Virus record (IMG/VR): IMGVR_UViG_3300032243_000867
Span: 1-64,000 of that record
Source: a virus
Taxonomy: Duplodnaviria > Caudoviricetes
Strand: one strand, 5' to 3'
Length of the DNA: 64,000 nucleotides
A program made the translations under genes and the position numbers. How positions within the stretch are numbered: position 1 is the stretch's first letter; each line of letters begins with the position of its first letter. Below the pieces are notes generated by a model. That model saw only the letters and a list, made by a program, of their open reading frames with translations, did no database searches and was not told where the DNA came from. Positions 3,796-42,083 of the stretch are shown here, piece by piece.

Positions 3796-4142
3796 ACCGC
3801 AAACTCGTTCGTAACGAGGGCGAGATCGTCGCCCTTGTGGTATCTGTCCTTGGGGAAGGGAACCCCAAGGCCCTCGAAGACATGCTGGGCATCGAGTTCG
3901 CCTACTCGGACGGTCGCTACCCCAGTGACCTCGAAGACGCCACCCCCTACGATGGGGACTGGTCGTGGGAGGACCAGCCCGTGGACTTCACCACCTACCG
4001 CCACGGCGAGGAGCCATACTTCCCGGCGACGTACCCCGCCTTGGCCCTGTACCTGTTCGACGATGACTTCGACCGGGGCGGGTCGGTGCGTACGCGGGTG
4101 CTGCTCTACGTCGAGCGCCACGAACTGGAGGGGGCGTCGTGA
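3792..4142 (+). CDS. Hypothetical protein
   Basis: GTGA overlap with previous stop; acidic/aromatic composition. Confidence 0.65.
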   Translation: MNRKLVRNEGEIVALVVSVLGEGNPKALEDMLGIEFAYSDGRYPSDLEDATPYDGDWSWEDQPVDFTTYRHGEEPYFPATYPALALYLFDDDFDRGGSVRTRVLLYVERHELEGAS

Positions 4143-4507
4143 GGGTCGCGATCAGCTACGAAACAGCCCTCGCGCGGCACCCCGCCGCCGTCGCGGAGGT
4201 GCTGGCAATACTCGCCAAGTCCCGGTCCAAGGACTCGGACTGCGACCCCACTCACTTCGCGTGGGCCTACTCGTGGGGCCTCTCCTTCCAGTGCGCCACG
4301 CTGGGCGAACTCCTCGCGGGGCGCAAACTCTCCGAGACCCGCTCGCTGGAAGAGCGCGTCGGGAGCATCTCCCTCTACGCCGACAAGGGCCGGAAGTACG
4401 CCTACTCCCACGGCACCTACGACTACGCCCGCGACGGGGCTGAAGCCCTTCCGCCCGAAGTGCGGGCCTATCACTGCGCGGAGCGCCCCGAACTCGAAGG
4501 TTCGTAG
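4139..4507 (+). CDS. Hypothetical protein
   Basis: GTGA overlap; 122 aa. Confidence 0.65.
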   Translation: MRVAISYETALARHPAAVAEVLAILAKSRSKDSDCDPTHFAWAYSWGLSFQCATLGELLAGRKLSETRSLEERVGSISLYADKGRKYAYSHGTYDYARDGAEALPPEVRAYHCAERPELEGS

Positions 4508-4608
4508 CGTAACCGGGCCTTCGGTCGGTATCCCGCTAGGGCGAAAAGTTACCCGACCGCTTCGGGGGGGGTCGGGCGACGGGGGTTTTCGCTACGAAGT
4601 TTCGATTC

Positions 4609-4648
4609 GCCGGGGCGACTCCCCTCGAAGGGAGTCGCCCCGGCCTTT
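4609..4648 (+). terminator. Intrinsic terminator
   Basis: Perfect 15-bp stem GCCGGGGCGACTCCC/GGGAGTCGCCCCGGC followed by CTTTT. Confidence 0.7.
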
Positions 4649-4699
4649 TCGCGTTCCGAAAGTTCTTCGGTCCGGGGGGCGTAACGGAAGGAGAGGACG

Positions 4700-4993
4700 A
4701 TGGATCGTGACCATGGCTTGAACGGGTGCGACTGCTGCGGATGCTCTCAAGGCTCCCACGAGGGCGAGGGCCTTGAGGCGTATGTGATCCGGGGGCGTTG
4801 CGAAACCTCCCGCCGCATCCGTGCAGGGGAGCGTCTCCCTTGCGCCGCGTGCGGGGAGGGAGACGTGGGGATGACCCCTTGCACCGCGTGCAAAACAAAC
4901 GCCGCTGACAGCGGCATGGTCCCTTACTCGGTGCTGGGGCTCACACCTCCCCGACCTCTCTTCAAGGAGTGGTGCGGGTTCCTCAACGACTGA
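4700..4993 (+). CDS. Cys-rich hypothetical protein
   Basis: AGGAGAGG RBS; CDCCGC, CAAC, CTAC motifs; GGGCGTAAC at 4677-4685. Confidence 0.6.
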   Translation: MDRDHGLNGCDCCGCSQGSHEGEGLEAYVIRGRCETSRRIRAGERLPCAACGEGDVGMTPCTACKTNAADSGMVPYSVLGLTPPRPLFKEWCGFLND

Positions 4994-5005
4994 AGGGTGT
5001 TGGTG

Positions 5006-5152
5006 ATGGAATGGGTAGTGGTCCGTGGGGGTTCCTACCGCTACCGCTACGGGGTGATGGTTCGGGCGGCGAAGGTCTGCAAAGAGCCTCCCGAGTCGCT
5101 CGACCGGGAGCCCGGGTTCCGCACCCGCCTACCTGTGAGGCAACCGAGATGA
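5006..5152 (+). CDS. VR-like micro-ORF 1 (FGE/CLec C-terminal segment only)
   Basis: Hand translation MEWVVVRGGSYRYRYGVMVRAAKVCKEPPESLDREPGFRTRLPVRQPR; stop overlaps next ATG. Confidence 0.65.
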   Translation: MEWVVVRGGSYRYRYGVMVRAAKVCKEPPESLDREPGFRTRLPVRQPR

Positions 5153-5319
5153 CCAAGAACGGCAACGAGTCACCGATCTTGGGCGTTCGCGGCGGCAACT
5201 GGGACAACGACCGTAGGTTCTATGTGCGGGTGTCGTTGGAGGAGATTCAGTTTGGCTCCCAGCTTCGGGGCACGGACACGGGTTTCCGCACCTCCCTCTC
5301 TGCGAGGCAACCGAGATGA
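5149..5319 (+). CDS. VR-like micro-ORF 2
   Basis: MTKNGNESPILGVRGGNWDNDRRFYVRVSLEEIQFGSQLRGTDTGFRTSLSARQPR; ATGA overlaps at both ends. Confidence 0.7.
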   Translation: MTKNGNESPILGVRGGNWDNDRRFYVRVSLEEIQFGSQLRGTDTGFRTSLSARQPR

Positions 5320-5471
5320 ACACCCCGTACTTCCGCATCCGAGGGGGATGTTGGATCGCCCGCGATCCGTGGTGGGTTCGCCCTGCGCTCGACACCCCAC
5401 AGAAAGCTGACGTGAACATCAACAGTCTCGGGTTCCGCACCTCCCTCCCTGCAAGGATGCACCGCGTATGA
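5316..5471 (+). CDS. VR-like micro-ORF 3
   Basis: MNTPYFRIRGGCWIARDPWWVRPALDTPQKADVNINSLGFRTSLPARMHRV; ATGA overlaps. Confidence 0.7.
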   Translation: MNTPYFRIRGGCWIARDPWWVRPALDTPQKADVNINSLGFRTSLPARMHRV

Positions 5472-5641
5472 GCGCCACCAAACTTCGAGAAGAATCCCAC
5501 CTTGTTCTTCGTGGGGGTTCTTGGAACCGCACGGGTACCCGCACCTTGCGTACCTATTTCAAAGGGGGGGAGCGACCCGCGCATTTCGACGACTGTCTGG
5601 GATTCCGCACGATGCTGCTGGGGCGTAAGGCACGGGCATGA
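5468..5641 (+). CDS. VR-like micro-ORF 4
   Basis: MSATKLREESHLVLRGGSWNRTGTRTLRTYFKGGERPAHFDDCLGFRTMLLGRKARA; stop overlaps the kinase ATG. Confidence 0.7.
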   Translation: MSATKLREESHLVLRGGSWNRTGTRTLRTYFKGGERPAHFDDCLGFRTMLLGRKARA

Positions 5642-6174
5642 AGCTCATCGTTTTGGAAGGCTGCGACGGCACGGGTACGAGCACCAACGCGAAGAAGTTG
5701 GGGGAGGCCCTCCAGCGCGAGGGCTACAAGACCCTCGTCTACCACCACCCGCCACATCGTCCGGGTGGGGGTGACTGGGAGCGGTCCCTGCACTACGCGA
5801 GGGAGCGGGCCGAGATGGCCACCCGCACGGCGGACGACACGGTGGTGGTGGCGGACCGCTGGGTGTACAGCACGGATGCGATTGCCAAGACCCTCGACGG
5901 CGAGGTTCGTGGGAGGCTGCTGGCCCTCACGGCACTGGAGAGGCAGTCTCTCCCGACCCCCACGCTCATCGTCCTGCTCGACGCCCCCGACGCGGTGCTG
6001 GACGAGAGGCTCACGGCCCGTGGCGAGTCTCTCCCTCCGCACCGTGGCGAGCTTCGTCGTGTGTACCGCGAGAGCATCGCCATGACGTGCGACGTGACGG
6101 TGAACACGGCGGGAGATAGCGGTCGGGTGTCTGACCGTCTGTTGTCCTTGGCCAAGGCTGCACTGGAGGACTGA
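5638..6174 (+). CDS. tmk: Thymidylate kinase-like (dNMP kinase)
   Basis: LIVLEGCDGTGTST P-loop, VVVADRWVYS, TLIVLLDAP. Confidence 0.8.
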   Translation: MKLIVLEGCDGTGTSTNAKKLGEALQREGYKTLVYHHPPHRPGGGDWERSLHYARERAEMATRTADDTVVVADRWVYSTDAIAKTLDGEVRGRLLALTALERQSLPTPTLIVLLDAPDAVLDERLTARGESLPPHRGELRRVYRESIAMTCDVTVNTAGDSGRVSDRLLSLAKAALED

Positions 6175-6175
6175 C

Positions 6176-6340
6176 ATGAGCAAGGGTCTACCGAGGGTCT
6201 GGAAGGCGACGGTCACGTACGAGGTGTACGTTCTCTCACACCGCGCCGACGAAGCAGCGGACTGCGCCAAGCTGAACCGGGACTGCTACGCGGACATCGA
6301 GCAATGGCTGGAGCGCATCAAGAAGGAGGGGGGCAAGTGA
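6176..6340 (+). CDS. Small hypothetical protein
   Basis: GGAGG RBS; MSKGLPRVWKATVTYEVYVLSHRADEAAD...; resembles the N-terminus of the next ORF. Confidence 0.55.
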   Translation: MSKGLPRVWKATVTYEVYVLSHRADEAADCAKLNRDCYADIEQWLERIKKEGGK

Positions 6341-6672
6341 GCGAACCCAAGCTGTACCGGGTAAGAATCGAAGCCGACGTGTACGTCGTCGCGGCCAGCG
6401 AGCGCGACGCCGAGGACTACGCCCTGCGGGAGAGTGACGTGGTGAACGACGCGATGGACAACGCCGACGCCACGGCTTCCGTCGTCACGGCGAAGAGTCT
6501 GAGCGGCGCGGAGGAGAACTGCCTCCCGTGGGTGGACGACGACTTGGAAGACGGCGAGGTTGACCGGGACCGCACGGTGAAGGCATGGGCGGAACTGAAC
6601 GACGCCTCCACGGCCCAAGCCAAGCGCGAGCGTGAGTTCAACGCCAAGCAACTGAACATCCCGGGGACGTGA
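6337..6672 (+). CDS. Hypothetical protein
   Basis: GTGA overlap with GGAGG RBS; VSEPKLYRVRIEADVYVVAAS... Confidence 0.65.
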   Translation: MSEPKLYRVRIEADVYVVAASERDAEDYALRESDVVNDAMDNADATASVVTAKSLSGAEENCLPWVDDDLEDGEVDRDRTVKAWAELNDASTAQAKREREFNAKQLNIPGT

Positions 6673-6887
6673 TGCGAACCTACCACATTCGCATGAGGGA
6701 CGACTACGGGTGGACCTTGGGGAAGGTATCCCCCGACGCGCCCAACAACAGCGCCGTTCTCACCGTCGAGCGGGACGGCACCCGCTGGGTCAGCCGGGTC
6801 AACGTGGACCGCCTGTCCATCGCAGACCTTTCCTCCCTCGCGGAGTTCTGCGCGCACGCGAAGCTCGACACCGGGCGCGGGACGTGA
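6672..6887 (+). CDS. Hypothetical protein
   Basis: Overlaps previous stop; 71 aa. Confidence 0.55.
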   Translation: MRTYHIRMRDDYGWTLGKVSPDAPNNSAVLTVERDGTRWVSRVNVDRLSIADLSSLAEFCAHAKLDTGRGT

Positions 6888-7052
6888 CCGTGGACGCGAC
6901 CCTACGGCAGACGAGCGGGTCATCCGCAACGGTTACCGTGGTTACCTTGCGGGGAGCATGGAGGCCATCGTAGACACCGCAGCCCCCTGCGAGGCGGTGG
7001 GGGCACGGTTGCTTGAGCTCTCCCCAGCGGCCCTTCGGGCGTAAGGTAGACC

Positions 7053-7712
7053 ATGAAGACATACACGTCGGGTGATCTCAAGGAAATCGTTCGACTCCAC
7101 GGACTGTGGCTTGGAGATCCCGCCACGGGTTCTCGGGCGACCTTGACCGGGGCGAACTTGTACAGGGCGTACTTGACCGGGGCGAACTTGACCGGGGCGA
7201 ACTTGACCGGGGCGAACTTGTACAGGGCGTACTTGACCGGGGCGAACTTGACCGGGGCGACCTTGGCCGGGGCGAACTTGACCGGGGCGACCTTGGCCGG
7301 GGCGAACTTGACCGGGGCGAACTTGACCGGGGCGTACTTGGCCGGGGCGACCTTGGCCGGGGCGTACTTGACCGGGGCGACCCTCCCCCCCTTCCAGATC
7401 GTTCCCGAGGTGGGCCAGTTCCGGGCCTTCAAGAAGGTTCAGGGGAACGTAGTACTGGAGCTTCTGATCCCCCGGTCGGCCCAACGGACTTCGACCCTCG
7501 TGGGTCGGAAGTGTCGGGCTTCCAAGGTCAAGGTTGTCGGTGTCGCTAGCGGGACCACCACGGAGACCGTTTTCCGGTCTCCCCACGATGAGGTTTTCAC
7601 CTACGAGGTGGGCAAGTGGGCAAGCGTTTCCGACTACGATGGGGACATCCGGGTGGAATGCACCAAGGGGATTCACTTCTTCCCGACCCTCAAGGAAGCT
7701 CAGGATTATTGA
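7053..7712 (+). CDS. Pentapeptide-repeat protein with DUF5758-like C-terminus
   Basis: About 17 A(N/T/Y)L-type pentapeptides; C-terminal KCRASKVKVV...YEVGK...ECTKGIHFF. Confidence 0.85.
   Translation: MKTYTSGDLKEIVRLHGLWLGDPATGSRATLTGANLYRAYLTGANLTGANLTGANLYRAYLTGANLTGATLAGANLTGATLAGANLTGANLTGAYLAGATLAGAYLTGATLPPFQIVPEVGQFRAFKKVQGNVVLELLIPRSAQRTSTLVGRKCRASKVKVVGVASGTTTETVFRSPHDEVFTYEVGKWASVSDYDGDIRVECTKGIHFFPTLKEAQDY
7134..7384 (+). repeat. 15-nt tandem repeat encoding the pentapeptides
   Basis: Units such as ACCGGGGCGAACTTG / GCCGGGGCGACCTTG / TACAGGGCGTACTTG. Confidence 0.9.
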
Positions 7713-7729
7713 TGACCACCGAGGACGCC

Positions 7730-7963
7730 ATGACCGTGGACGCGACCGTAGAAGACCTCCGAACGCTGATCGGGGACGTGCTGTTCCAACGGGGTTATGG
7801 TTCGGGGTCCTTCGACCCGTACACGCGGGATCACGAACCCGGTTGGCACTACGTCCAAGTGGACGCCCGTTCCTACGACGTTCGTAGGCTGACGGTCAAC
7901 GAGCGGGGTCGTACGGAAGCCGAAGCCTTGCGGGGTGTATTGGACGCCCTTGGAGTACCGTGA
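7730..7963 (+). CDS. Hypothetical protein
   Basis: GAGGA RBS; MTVDATVEDLRTLIGDVLFQRG...; alternative start 7712. Confidence 0.55.
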   Translation: MTVDATVEDLRTLIGDVLFQRGYGSGSFDPYTRDHEPGWHYVQVDARSYDVRRLTVNERGRTEAEALRGVLDALGVP

Positions 7964-8138
7964 ACCTAGATCAAGCCCGAGCTCTGACCGCACGGTTCCC
8001 CGCCTATTCCCCGCCCCCCGTAGCGGGCCCCCGGTAGCGGTGGTTTCTGCCGCTTCCCACCGCGCACCGTCCCCTGAAGCCGAGCGGCGACAGGGGGGTG
8101 GGCTGGGAGCCCGCCCCTACGGAGAACGGGGACAGCCA

Positions 8139-8636
8139 ATGAAGAAGAAGTCCAGCGAGCACGGTGCCGGGTCTGACGGCAACTACATGACGAAGCAGAA
8201 CCTGTGGCTCGCCCACCGCGTGAGCCAGATGCTCTACAACGGCATCCCCGACGGGGTTCTTCTCCCCGATTGGGCCGAGAGCAAGATCAACAGCGCCGCC
8301 CAGCACCTGAAGGAGGTCGCCGGGTGGGCGATGCACGAGTCTCACGGCGATAACCTTCACCCCGCCCCCGAGGCGAACCCCATTCACCTTGCGGGTGAGG
8401 GGGAGCTAAGGTCGAAGCTGGTCCGTCTGGCTCACGAGAACCCCGATCTCCGCCCCCACCTCCTCCCGCTGCTGACCAAGACGGCGGCGGGGGACAAGTG
8501 CGTGGTGTGCGGCAAGCCGGGGGAGGAGATCCGTTACAACGTCCGGGGGTCCGACGGGACGGAGCTCGCGGGGCGCGTGTTCATCAAGGGCTCGGTGCTT
8601 TGCGACAAGCACCAGGAGATGCTCGAAGGCACCTGA
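8139..8636 (+). CDS. Putative head-associated protein carrying the LRSKxxRLAH tag
   Basis: LPDWAESKINSAAQHL helical segment; internal LRSKLVRLAHENPDLRPHLLPLLTKTAA; C-terminal CVVC. Confidence 0.7.
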   Translation: MKKKSSEHGAGSDGNYMTKQNLWLAHRVSQMLYNGIPDGVLLPDWAESKINSAAQHLKEVAGWAMHESHGDNLHPAPEANPIHLAGEGELRSKLVRLAHENPDLRPHLLPLLTKTAAGDKCVVCGKPGEEIRYNVRGSDGTELAGRVFIKGSVLCDKHQEMLEGT

Positions 8637-8672
8637 CCGCCCGGGAGCGAAGAATAACACCAACGAGAAAAG

Positions 8673-8715
8673 CCGCCCCCCGTACCCCGGCGCGATGCCG
8701 GGGTACGGGGGGCGG
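8673..8715. terminator. Bidirectional terminator between convergent genes
   Basis: Perfect 19-bp stem CCGCCCCCCGTACCCCGGC/GCCGGGGTACGGGGGGCGG, A-run before and T-run after. Confidence 0.75.
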
Positions 8716-8720
8716 TTTCG

Positions 8721-9176
8721 TTACGCGGGGGAGACGCCGGGGAGGGACTTGAGAGACACCCGCGGGGTGTTCGGCACCAGGTCCGCCACGCTCGCGACGT
8801 GCGCTTGCACCGCGGGCGGGAAGCAAGCCAGGAAAGTCGGGTCCGCCTTCCGAAGCGAGAGCTTCACCTCGTAGATGGCGTTGAACAGGTCTCCCAACGC
8901 AGCCCTCTCGCCGTCCACCGTCGCGGCGGGGGTGAGCTTCAGCGACGGTCCGGGCACGACCACCTTGGCTTGGGTGAGCCCGTCACCGTCGAAGGTGACG
9001 GTGGATTTGCCAGAGGCGACCGCGAGGGCGCGCACCTCGCGCTTAAAGGGCTCCAGTGCCTCCTGGCACGCCTCGATGGCGTTCCAGAGCGCGGAGGCAG
9101 CGGCCACCTTCGAGGCGAGAGGGGCGGCGGGGTCGTTGATGAGGGCGGTGTGGGCGCTGATGTCGAGGGCTTTCAT
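8721..9176 (-). CDS. Hypothetical protein
   Basis: AAAGGA RBS; MKALDISAHTALIND...; ends at the terminator. Confidence 0.7.
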   Translation of the reverse strand: MKALDISAHTALINDPAAPLASKVAAASALWNAIEACQEALEPFKREVRALAVASGKSTVTFDGDGLTQAKVVVPGPSLKLTPAATVDGERAALGDLFNAIYEVKLSLRKADPTFLACFPPAVQAHVASVADLVPNTPRVSLKSLPGVSPA

Positions 9177-36083: not shown

Positions 36084-36393
36084 ACCTGTGAAAATCCCAA
36101 TCCGGGCGGGTGCCCGTGACGGATACCTCGACTCCCATCTCGTAACCCGCGTCGTAAGCGCAGTTGTCGCCCTCTCTCAAAGAGGGGTCGCGGCCCATTC
36201 CTTCACGGCCCATAACGTAGCCCGCGGCGAACGAACCCCGGTCACCGAAGGGTGCCGGAACTTCGCCCCAGCGTAGGCGGTTGACCTCCATCGTGAGGAG
36301 GGTGTCTTGCTTTTTACCGCCGAGGAAGTTGGGGTCGTTCCTAGCGGCTAGATGGAACAGAACGGCGTACGGGTTCACAGTCTTTTCCCCCAT
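36070..36393 (-). CDS. Hypothetical protein
   Basis: 107 aa; downstream of the MTase in the same orientation. Confidence 0.5.
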   Translation of the reverse strand: MGEKTVNPYAVLFHLAARNDPNFLGGKKQDTLLTMEVNRLRWGEVPAPFGDRGSFAAGYVMGREGMGRDPSLREGDNCAYDAGYEMGVEVSVTGTRPDWDFHRFTAN

Positions 36394-36941
36394 GTCGTGG
36401 CGTCGAGCCTGTCAGGGTTGGGGTTGTAGGGGTGTTGTTCAGAATTCGCTATTCCCGCAAGCTCTTCATGGTGCAGCGTGCGGTCCGGGCGGGGGTCGTT
36501 ACCGTAGTGAATCATTACGTTCCATCGGCAGGGTAGGCACTTCACGGTGCCCCTCAACACGAGGTGGGAGAACAGGTCGGGCGTCCCGCAAGCGGTCCCG
36601 TCCGTGTTCTTGCCGACGTAGAGGACGTGGGGGATGGAGCGGAGAATCCCCGTCAATCCCATCAGCGTGTAGTTCTGGGGCCAGCACAGGACGGCCACCT
36701 CTACGCCCTCCGGGCACTTCCAATGCGCGAAGTAGCTCTGATGTACCTCGACCTTGGGGTGCTCCACGGGACACGGTCCCTTGTCCACGGCGTGGACGAG
36801 CGTAGCCCCCATGTCGGCCATCGTGCGGGAGAGCTCGCCGCTACCGCATCCTAAGTCCGCGACCGCGCGCCCTTCGACCACAGTGCGGAGGTAGGCCAAC
36901 TGTTCCTCTGACAGCGTGTAGTAGGTGCCCGTCCTGCTCAT
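36375..36941 (-). CDS. Class I SAM-dependent methyltransferase
   Basis: VADLGCGSG motif I; HAVDK. Confidence 0.75.
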   Translation of the reverse strand: MSRTGTYYTLSEEQLAYLRTVVEGRAVADLGCGSGELSRTMADMGATLVHAVDKGPCPVEHPKVEVHQSYFAHWKCPEGVEVAVLCWPQNYTLMGLTGILRSIPHVLYVGKNTDGTACGTPDLFSHLVLRGTVKCLPCRWNVMIHYGNDPRPDRTLHHEELAGIANSEQHPYNPNPDRLDATTWGKRL

Positions 36942-37111
36942 CGGGGTTCCTTTCCCCGCAGCGCGCACCGAAACCCCAGGTTGAGGATCCGGTACGCAGG
37001 CACGCTCGTGTGGCGAGACGCCGCGCTCACCCACGACGGTACGTTGAGGCCCCAACTGCCGCCGCGGATGACGAGGTAACGGGTGTCGGTGGGCTTTGTG
37101 GGGGGTTTCAC
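36938..37111 (-). CDS. VR-like micro-ORF 5
   Basis: Hand translation VKPPTKPTDTRYLVIRGGSWGLNVPSWVSAASRHTSVPAYRILNLGFRCALRGKEPR; GTGA/ATGA overlaps at both ends. Confidence 0.75.
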   Translation of the reverse strand: MKPPTKPTDTRYLVIRGGSWGLNVPSWVSAASRHTSVPAYRILNLGFRCALRGKEPR

Positions 37112-41742: not shown

Positions 41743-41928
41743 TCAGCGGAGTATCGTTCGCGGTTCCCTTCCCCGAAGGGCGCACCGAAACCCGGCATCG
41801 TCGAGACGGCACGCAGGCACGTCCGCGCCGCGAGACGCGGCGCGCACCCTCGACGGTACGTTGCTGTACCAACAGCCGCCGCGTTGGACGCGAAGGCGGG
41901 TGTCAGTGGGCTTGGTGGTGGGGTTCAT
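41743..41928 (-). CDS. VR-like micro-ORF 6
   Basis: MNPTTKPTDTRLRVQRGGCWYSNVPSRVRAASRGADVPACRLDDAGFRCALRGREPRTILR. Confidence 0.75.
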   Translation of the reverse strand: MNPTTKPTDTRLRVQRGGCWYSNVPSRVRAASRGADVPACRLDDAGFRCALRGREPRTILR

Positions 41929-42083
41929 ACTCGGGGGCTCCTTCCCGGCAGGTGGGTTCGGAACCCGTGGTCGCGGAAAAAAATTGTGGGCTTGTACTCT
42001 TGAAACGACGCGGCGGGTAGGAAGGCCGCGAGGTGGTACCAAGACCCGCCACGAATCACGCGAAGCCGGTTGTCGATCCTCAC
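41925..42083 (-). CDS. VR-like micro-ORF 7
   Basis: GAGGTG RBS; VRIDNRLRVIRGGSWYHLAAFLPAASFQEYKPTIFFRDHGFRTHLPGRSPRV; ATGA overlap. Confidence 0.7.
   Translation of the reverse strand: MRIDNRLRVIRGGSWYHLAAFLPAASFQEYKPTIFFRDHGFRTHLPGRSPRV

Follow-up and report, generated by a model that had tools for sequence, protein, structure and literature searches.

Proteins with a variable C-type lectin (CLec) fold are, to our knowledge, the main substrate of targeted protein diversification in phages and bacteria. The motif RGGSW...GFR belongs to the C-terminal segment of the FGE-sulfatase/CLec fold and is the variable region of many proteins targeted by diversity-generating retroelements (DGRs); in all descriptions that we know of, this segment lies within the protein and is diversified by the retroelement. 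Here we describe a stretch of 64,000 nucleotides (the window) from the tailed-phage record IMGVR_UViG_3300032243_000867 (Duplodnaviria; Caudoviricetes), in which the segment occurs by itself, as a tandem array of four micro-open reading frames (micro-ORFs) in front of the thymidylate kinase gene tmk. A gene for an FGE-sulfatase domain that is cut short before this very segment was found in the same record, and the reading favoured here is that the micro-ORFs encode a library of alternative endings, any of which would complete the truncated scaffold in trans.

Results

The window is the first 64 kb of a record of 265,895 b with a GC content of ~65% and a CheckV completeness of 59%, from which a huge phage of ~450 kb was estimated. 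An earlier, sequence-only reading had described the four micro-ORFs as chained by ATGA overlaps, running into tmk and forming a library of stand-alone variable segments, and the coordinates and sequences that it gave proved exact. The four ORFs have in common (V/I/L)RGGx(W/Y), 25-26 mostly variable residues with an internal (V/L)R, and GFRTxLxxR. The repeat search recovered the 3' similarities reported earlier, namely the 16 nt GAGGCAACCGAGATGA common to the ends of ORF1 and ORF2 and the GGTTCCGCACC-like anchors present in ORFs 1-3 (together repeat families D1 and D2); each of these repeated 3' ends holds a GAGG or AAGG core ~9 nt ahead of the next start codon. A profile built from 39 other units, leaving out the four window ORFs and their close relatives, recognised all four in frame among 4,676 six-frame ORFs, with E values of 3e-18 (ORF3), 7e-13 (ORF1), 8.5e-13 and 7e-10 (ORF2). 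Together with the at least 25 units detected in the record by a six-frame regular-expression scan followed by a profile scan, seven of them in the window, this bears out the notion of a library.

Most units lie in tandem arrays with a period of 143-180 nt that is always 2 modulo 3, and therefore each unit is set one frame back from the preceding one; within each array all units are in direct orientation. Three related phage fragments hold 5, 16 and 12 units. The frame, the framework motif, the start and a positionally conserved stop are kept in all 56 units from seven sources, 47 of which have a 4-nt start/stop overlap with the next ORF, and the start codon overlaps a stop codon in 41 (the stop being counted in any frame). 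TGA ends 48 of the 56 units and TAA or TAG the other eight. An alternative code with TGA read-through was rejected, since the TAA/TAG-ended units and scaffolds stop at the equivalent position, and assembly or sequencing frameshifts were rejected since identical frame offsets recur in independent assemblies, the arrangement being present in those of IMG/VR, ENA and Logan. Two subfamilies can be told apart: T-type units, which include the window array and the scaffold-adjacent unit, end in GFRTxLxxRxPR, and C-type units start with MNPPTKPSDTRLRV and end with GFRCALRGREPRT.

Pfam FGE-sulfatase matches were obtained for 32 of 45 units, at profile positions ~200-254 of 255 (best E 3e-7), and the unit profile matches the extreme C-termini of solved FGE-fold chains (PorK/GldK, SUMF1/2, bacterial FGE). 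From the window array, ORF4 alone reaches the Pfam family by itself (E 0.0028, below the gathering score; profile 210-253/255). It also has 57-aa homologues in other metagenomes, with 91% and 75% identity, and the ESM Atlas clusters closest to ORF3 consist of 50-58-aa proteins with PF03781. None of the four window micro-ORFs has a match in PHROGs, and BLAST with window 4000-9000 gave no match among deposited phages. Judged by these profile matches, each micro-ORF is the last ~45 positions, a strand-loop-strand piece, of the FGE-sulfatase/C-type-lectin fold. The unit alignments contain no conserved Cys pair. In human FGE the catalytic Cys pair falls in this C-terminal segment, and an enzymatic role of the units is therefore unlikely.

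The sequence-only reading had also proposed to look for a scaffold lacking its C-terminus, and the record contains one, a 289-aa ORF followed by six micro-ORFs in total (Table 1). It gave the one N-terminal FGE-sulfatase part in a Pfam scan of the whole record; it ends in ...GNVWEWTSTVHK, where its stop and the start (ATG) of the first micro-ORF overlap. A complete PF03781 domain (~255 positions) in one polypeptide is present neither in the scaffold (12-193) nor in the units (~200-254). Because these profile positions adjoin, and the units match FGE C-termini, scaffold and unit are predicted to be the two complementary parts of a single domain, with the break in the loop that links the WEW strand to the RGG strand. 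In addition, the N-terminal part of phrog_18508 matches the scaffold, and three of the scanned C-type units weakly match its C-terminal end.

The truncation is conserved. About 45 homologous scaffold clusters (43-94% identity, mostly 268-277 aa), which occur on contigs of as much as 392 kb, align with the query as far as its end, and the end point is identical in 24 of 24 aligned members of the phage clade (P0161-P0205); the cellular FGE proteins aligned with them extend further, into RV.RGG...G.RCA. A scan of 185,579 bacterial and archaeal species-representative genomes found no cellular copy of the truncated scaffold; its matches were distant FGE domains, all of them complete, with 28-54% identity over part of the query, and it gave no clue to the host. 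In four other contigs, between 2 and 7 micro-ORFs come after the scaffold, with two in L013 and three in each of L014 and L015. Furthermore, phages of the L015 type carry a unit fused in frame ahead of the scaffold (L015:3680-4717; P0202 and P0203, with 13 and 5 members). Such a unit-before-scaffold gene resembles a circular permutation and is hard to explain unless the two together make up a single fold.

The junction between the scaffold and its first unit is an ATGA overlap in the record, a TAG with 1-nt overlap in L014, and in L015 a 4-nt spacer with a +1 frame and an AGGTGA site of its own. As it differs between relatives, independent initiation is favoured over a conserved frameshift fusion. 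Programmed frameshifting or bypassing could instead join the units to the scaffold or to each other, and the product would then be one multi-module polypeptide like the in-frame proteins P0003 and P0005. Other metagenomes hold proteins in which an FGE N-terminal part and about ten modules are encoded in frame, and successive units are almost always in the -1 frame relative to the preceding one. We nevertheless hold this to be distinctly improbable, as the junction varies, no slippery heptamer of the form X XXY YYZ was found at the conserved junction, and the starts are preceded by Shine-Dalgarno (SD)-like sites.

A complex of the scaffold with window ORF4 was modelled from alignments of 41 and 45 rows, respectively. 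The interface score ipSAE was 0.92, 0.92 and 0.91 in three runs and 0.12 for the best control. The ipSAE mark is reached by 58 of 80 solved complexes and by 2 of 110 mismatched pairs, counts that hold only roughly here because our own alignments were used. At least 97% of the contacts were common to the runs, the predicted local distance difference test (pLDDT) of the partner was 82-84, and the GFR strand of the peptide was placed against scaffold residues 151-156, 192-203 and 280-284. For the P0202 fusion, a model with an alignment of the scaffold only gave a pLDDT of 84-94 for the FGE core and below 50 for the N-terminal unit, so the position of the unit is not confident; a single-sequence fold gave 35. 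The scaffold part of this model matches FGE, EgtB, PvdO and the DGR target TvpA (2Y3C).

Signals for translation accompany the units. An SD-like core lies 5-16 nt upstream of the start in all four window ORFs (AAGGG upstream of ORF1, GAGG 9 nt ahead of the ATG of ORF2), and over the whole record such cores precede 15 of 24 units against a background of 14% (p 7e-8). The GC content by codon position peaks at position 3 in the proposed frame of ORFs 1-3 and of nearly all family members, with 0.60/0.58/0.78 in a typical unit and 0.63/0.47/0.81 in the genome reference. An open frame alone is weak evidence, the probability of 55 open codons at a random place being 0.42. Among 52 units, entropy is low in the framework columns (RGGxW, P, VRAA, R, P, R, LGFR, L, R..PR), and their ratio of non-synonymous to synonymous polymorphism (pN/pS) is 0.49. 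Three hypervariable patches (after W, after AA.R and after P..R), all of which fall between RGGxW and GFR, exceed 3 bits of entropy with a pN/pS of 1.55, a value inflated by the choice of these columns by entropy.

Four related strains (L010, L011, L012 and L092; 96-97% nucleotide identity) keep all four ORFs of the window array, and the indels (6 and 3 nt) and the one inversion (39 nt) by which they differ all leave the frame intact. ORF1 is conserved in L011, L012 and L092 with the 6-nt indel at its N-terminus, and ORF2 has the 3-nt indel in L011/L012. The reverse complement of the inverted segment in ORF4 matches L011:1643-1681 at 37 of 39 positions; the inversion changes 12 residues (GGERPAHFDDCL to TIVEMRGSLPTL) and leaves the frame open, and no clear inverted repeat was seen flanking it. 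The upstream flank of the array (window 4700-5015) differs in each strain and appears as a hot spot of insertion and deletion: L011 and L012 are without the Cys-rich ORF, and there (L011:1080) ORF1 begins with MDRDH, which opens the Cys-rich ORF of the window, and L092 has an unrelated 90-aa ORF (2103-2375) in place of the Cys-rich 97-aa ORF.

Elsewhere in the record, unit 263,408 proved to be a clean mosaic that agrees at every position with unit 263,578 over the first half and with unit 263,235 over the second. With the high conservation of unit boundaries at the DNA level, the inversion polymorphism in ORF4 and the changing upstream flank, this mosaic would suit recombination cassettes, that is, donors that gene conversion or unequal crossing-over would carry into the slot beside the scaffold, the translation of distant copies being incidental. 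Such a role strikes us as improbable: start codon, SD-like site and intact frame are kept even in distant, highly diverged units; the window units, with less than 72% DNA identity to any other unit, are poor substrates for homologous exchange; the scaffold-adjacent unit is itself a separate ORF, so that conversion there would still need assembly in trans; and recombination may simply be the mode of evolution of the family. The donor cassettes suggested by the sequence-only reading thus draw partial support from the one mosaic, but the start codon and ribosome-binding site kept by each cassette speak against the suggestion.

The scaffold gene has a history of its own. Compared with L013 and L014, phages that are otherwise near-identical, it shows a synonymous divergence (dS) of ~0.6 and 73-74% amino acid identity, and its neighbours are far less diverged (dS ~0.05 for the adjacent micro-ORF, 97% amino acid identity for tmk). 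By eye, the differences cluster in the 5' half, a pattern that suggests that an allele was replaced through recombination inside the scaffold gene.

The sequence-only reading had called for a search for a DGR, and the searches turned up no reverse transcriptase (RT), no Avd and no adenine-biased pair of template and variable repeat in the available sequence. RVT_1 had no match at E<=10 in the record of 265,895 b and none at E<=1 in the 328 kb of the three related fragments, and Avd (PF05635) had none in the record at E<=1. Among 80 pairs of units with >=72% identity, none differs mainly at adenines, the mismatches being distributed over all four bases. A DGR was rejected on these three tests, as far as fragmentary genomes allow; it is not detectable, and as all records are fragments its absence from the whole genome is not proven. 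The units could still be variable regions of a DGR with its RT and template repeat in the ~41% of the genome that was not sampled. In favour of this, the segment occupies the variable-region position of FGE-type DGR targets, TvpA is among the structural matches of the scaffold model, some units are Asn-rich in the variable patches, and each of the four phage records is a fragment. In view of the negative RVT_1 and Avd searches, the missing adenine bias and the divergence of the window units, which are too far from all others to be current variable-region copies of one template, we give this explanation very little credence.

Relatives of the units are widespread in metagenomes. When 1.84 billion representative proteins were searched with a profile, 11,823 matched at E<=1e-3, including ~20 clusters of single proteins of 49-66 aa and proteins with 3-10 in-frame copies of the ~45-residue module. 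Some of these tandem-module proteins are without an FGE N-terminal part (P0004, P0010, P0016, P0022) and others have one (P0003, P0005); in P0005 the modules directly follow the FGE N-terminal part, in P0003 they stand on both sides of a complete FGE domain, and P0014 also belongs to these uncharacterised proteins. Their clusters comprise 1-5 sequences each, none with an informative name. The ESM Atlas contains clusters of 57-79 members of 40-58 aa, with PF03781 in three of the four clusters shown and a few members assigned to Planctomycetota.

The features are collected in Table 1.

Table 1. Features of the window and the scaffold gene of the record; positions are those of the window unless the record is named.
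Feature	Position	Strand	Description
Micro-ORF 1	5006..5152	+	48 aa, T-type; VRGGSY, variable loops, GFRTRLPVRQPR; stop overlaps ORF2 start (ATGA)
Micro-ORF 2	5149..5319	+	56 aa, T-type; VRGGNW ... GFRTSLSARQPR; ATGA overlap at both ends
Micro-ORF 3	5316..5471	+	51 aa, T-type; IRGGCW ... GFRTSLPARMHRV; ATGA overlap at both ends
Micro-ORF 4	5468..5641	+	57 aa, T-type; LRGGSW ... GFRTMLLGRKARA; stop overlaps tmk start
Inverted 39-nt segment in ORF4	5562..5600	.	second or third variable loop; inverted in L011/L012
Truncated FGE scaffold	record 263,930-264,799	-	289-aa ORF; PF03781 positions 12-193/255, E 9e-32
tmk, thymidylate kinase gene	5638..6174	+	Thymidylate_kin E 1.2e-8; phrog_761 E 3e-15; ATGA coupling to ORF4
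Single C-type unit	36938..37111	-	57 aa, GFRCALRGKEPR; stop overlaps (ATGA) start of methyltransferase-like ORF 36375-36941
T-type unit, first of two-unit array	41925..42083	-	52 aa, GFRTHLPGRSPRV
C-type unit, second of two-unit array	41743..41928	-	61 aa, MNPTTKPTDTRLRVQRGGCW ... GFRCALRGREPR; ATG overlaps stop of previous unit
Cys-rich 97-aa ORF	4700..4993	+	directly upstream of the array; strain-specific; no Pfam or PHROG match
Terminator-like hairpin	4610..4649	+	perfect 14-bp GC-rich stem CCGGGGCGACTCCC / GGGAGTCGCCCCGG, 6-nt loop, then CCTTTT

The hairpin upstream of the array was read directly from the sequence, as the consensus terminator scan did not list it because of its short T-run; it probably ends the upstream transcription unit before the array. 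Units act as leader ORFs of unrelated genes, of tmk at 5638 and of the methyltransferase-like gene at 36375, the product of which resembles PrmA/FtsJ-like SAM-methyltransferases (E ~1e-4). Between two arrays, a 72-aa ORF (L001:229-447, minus strand; record ~262,649-262,867) ends in ...VVLKGGNWYTRTV; it resembles the first strand of a unit cut short and may be a truncated unit. Downstream of tmk, a pentapeptide-repeat protein (window 7053-7712, plus strand; Pfam Pentapeptide E 5e-34, C-terminal DUF5758) has a repeat owing to which several frames of either strand stay open as long ORFs.

Discussion

The array and its relatives are likely, in our judgement, to belong to a split lectin-fold binder, in which a germline library of independently translated variable segments completes a truncated scaffold in trans. 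From the three functions proposed by the sequence-only reading (completion of a scaffold in trans, diversified inhibitors or donor cassettes), it is the first that draws most support, because the truncation is conserved in ~45 clusters, scaffold and micro-ORFs are constantly adjacent and the predicted complex scored 0.92 against 0.12. The four ORFs of the window are then best explained as diverged members of the library, co-expressed with tmk. Translation, assembly in trans and binding of a ligand, which could be a host surface or a host defence protein, are what we infer from these features.

In such a system, each unit would be translated from its own start by termination-reinitiation, helped by a ribosome-binding site that the preceding unit carries in its conserved 3' end and by the 4-nt overlap. 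The peptide would dock non-covalently on the truncated scaffold, so that its framework (RGGxW, VRAA, P, R, LGFR) restores the core and the three hypervariable patches of the peptide form an exposed ligand-binding face. Many peptides would compete for one scaffold, giving a repertoire of binding specificities hard-wired in the genome and renewed by duplication, unequal crossing-over and small rearrangements rather than by the mutagenic retrohoming of DGRs. It is conceivable, and we propose it tentatively, that this clade of huge phages replaced DGR-style hypermutation with a combinatorial system, in which dozens of micro-proteins, encoded at dispersed sites and driven by separate operons, complete one scaffold after translation, possibly staged through infection.

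Several observations weigh against completion in trans. The GC content of ORF4 is flat across codon positions; between close strains, non-synonymous changes in the array are about as frequent per site as synonymous ones (hand count); and the ratio of the two rates (omega) is 0.4-0.7 for the scaffold-adjacent unit, with few substitutions, so that purifying selection on single units is not strongly demonstrated by these close strains. The modelling covered one window peptide, ORF4, and the passing score may reflect likeness to the many solved single-chain FGE folds. The window array has no adjoining scaffold, a single scaffold was found for 25 peptides in a record that holds an estimated 59% of the genome, and, given the in-frame tandem-module proteins, the module may also work in ways for which a separate scaffold is not needed.

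The units could also be repeats derived from the 3' end of an FGE gene, decaying or selfish and without a function of their own. Omega near 1 among very close strains, the multi-copy and dispersed nature of the repeat and the ease with which frames stay open in GC-rich DNA would all agree with this. However, such decay is extremely unlikely given that frame, framework motif, start and stop position are retained across the seven sources, that framework and loops differ in pN/pS, that the scaffold is cut at one residue over 43-94% identity, and that the arrangement recurs in independent assemblies. The sequence-only reading had named frame-disrupting mutations in homologs, or descent by decay from one long gene, as grounds for giving it up; the four related strains show no frame disruption, and the units do not look like the random decay of one long gene.

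Alternatively, the peptides could act independently of the phage scaffold, either as decoys or poisons, by inserting into host proteins of the FGE/CLec fold or competing with them, or as small binders themselves. The one scaffold found for 25 peptides would fit this. Arrays far from the scaffold are several and, like that of the window, stand in operons with genes such as tmk and the methyltransferase-like gene; arrays without a scaffold occur on other contigs as well (e.g. L094), as do the proteins that consist of modules only. Bacterial conflict systems are also reported to use FGE/CLec domains as sensors or effectors (PMC7159879, PMC10907252), which would favour such a role. On the other side, the scaffold truncation is conserved and units always follow it, the residues that pack on the scaffold in the model are the framework residues that no unit has lost, and a strand-loop-strand piece of 45 residues would be unlikely to fold alone. 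We therefore consider scaffold-independent action unlikely, although it is the first among the alternatives, which we rank in descending likelihood as scaffold-independent peptides, donor cassettes, frameshifting, a hidden DGR and non-functional repeats.

If completion of the scaffold in trans holds true, it would be a different route to binding diversity, with a fold split exactly at its variable segment and dozens of alternatives for that segment encoded as micro-genes, and a natural case of protein-fragment complementation generating receptor diversity. One virus would display or deploy a panel of binding specificities. It would also give a function to a large class of "hypothetical proteins" of ~50-60 residues that are called or missed in the genomes of huge phages. 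One scaffold with many peptides makes a testable system and could serve as a template for engineered split lectin-fold binders.

Comparison with known systems

The sequence-only reading did not recognise the architecture from any described system, and we likewise found no description of split FGE domains or of arrays of micro-ORFs that hold only the variable region in the full-text literature, the coverage of which is incomplete, so that novelty is not proven. The best structural and sequence matches are in the FGE-sulfatase family and its lectin-like relatives (SUMF1/SUMF2, bacterial FGE, the EgtB C-domain, PvdO, PorK/GldK), which are single polypeptides, whereas the phage domain is split over scaffold and unit. 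The tandem-module proteins of metagenomes have the identical ~45-residue module, but in one reading frame and one polypeptide.

Among systems that offer alternative endings, the G-segment of Mu Gin and P1 Cin and the R64 shufflon of PilV likewise have a constant N-terminal part with alternative C-terminal segments encoded alongside. There, a recombinase joins inverted cassettes at the DNA level and gives one fused protein per genome state, whereas the phage cassettes are direct, have a start codon each and in many cases lie far from the scaffold. Inverted cassettes with recombinase sites were not seen, the only inversion observed being the 39 nt inside ORF4, and no link between a recombinase and the units was seen, although no recombinase search was made. 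Neisseria pilS/pilE and Borrelia vls resemble the units in their tandem partial gene copies, conserved framework, variable patches and mosaic exchange, but silent cassettes are without translation signals and the phage units have start codons, SD-like sites and coupled stops.

The units fail the defining tests for DGRs, shufflons and silent cassettes. With DGR targets such as Mtd of BPP-1 and TvpA of T. denticola (2Y3C) they nevertheless have in common the fold family, the variable RGGxW...GFR segment with its variable residues at the C-terminal end of a CLec-fold protein, the phage setting and the presumed purpose, many ligand specificities on one constant scaffold. They differ from DGR targets in that no RT, Avd, template repeat or adenine-specific variation was found, and in that the segment is a separate gene in at least 25 fixed copies instead of a part of the scaffold polypeptide. 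The diversity is germline and combinatorial here, while that of DGRs is somatic and mutational. The best-supported view of the units, as far as sequence can tell, is that they are fragments of the FGE-sulfatase fold that would work like the variable region of DGR targets.

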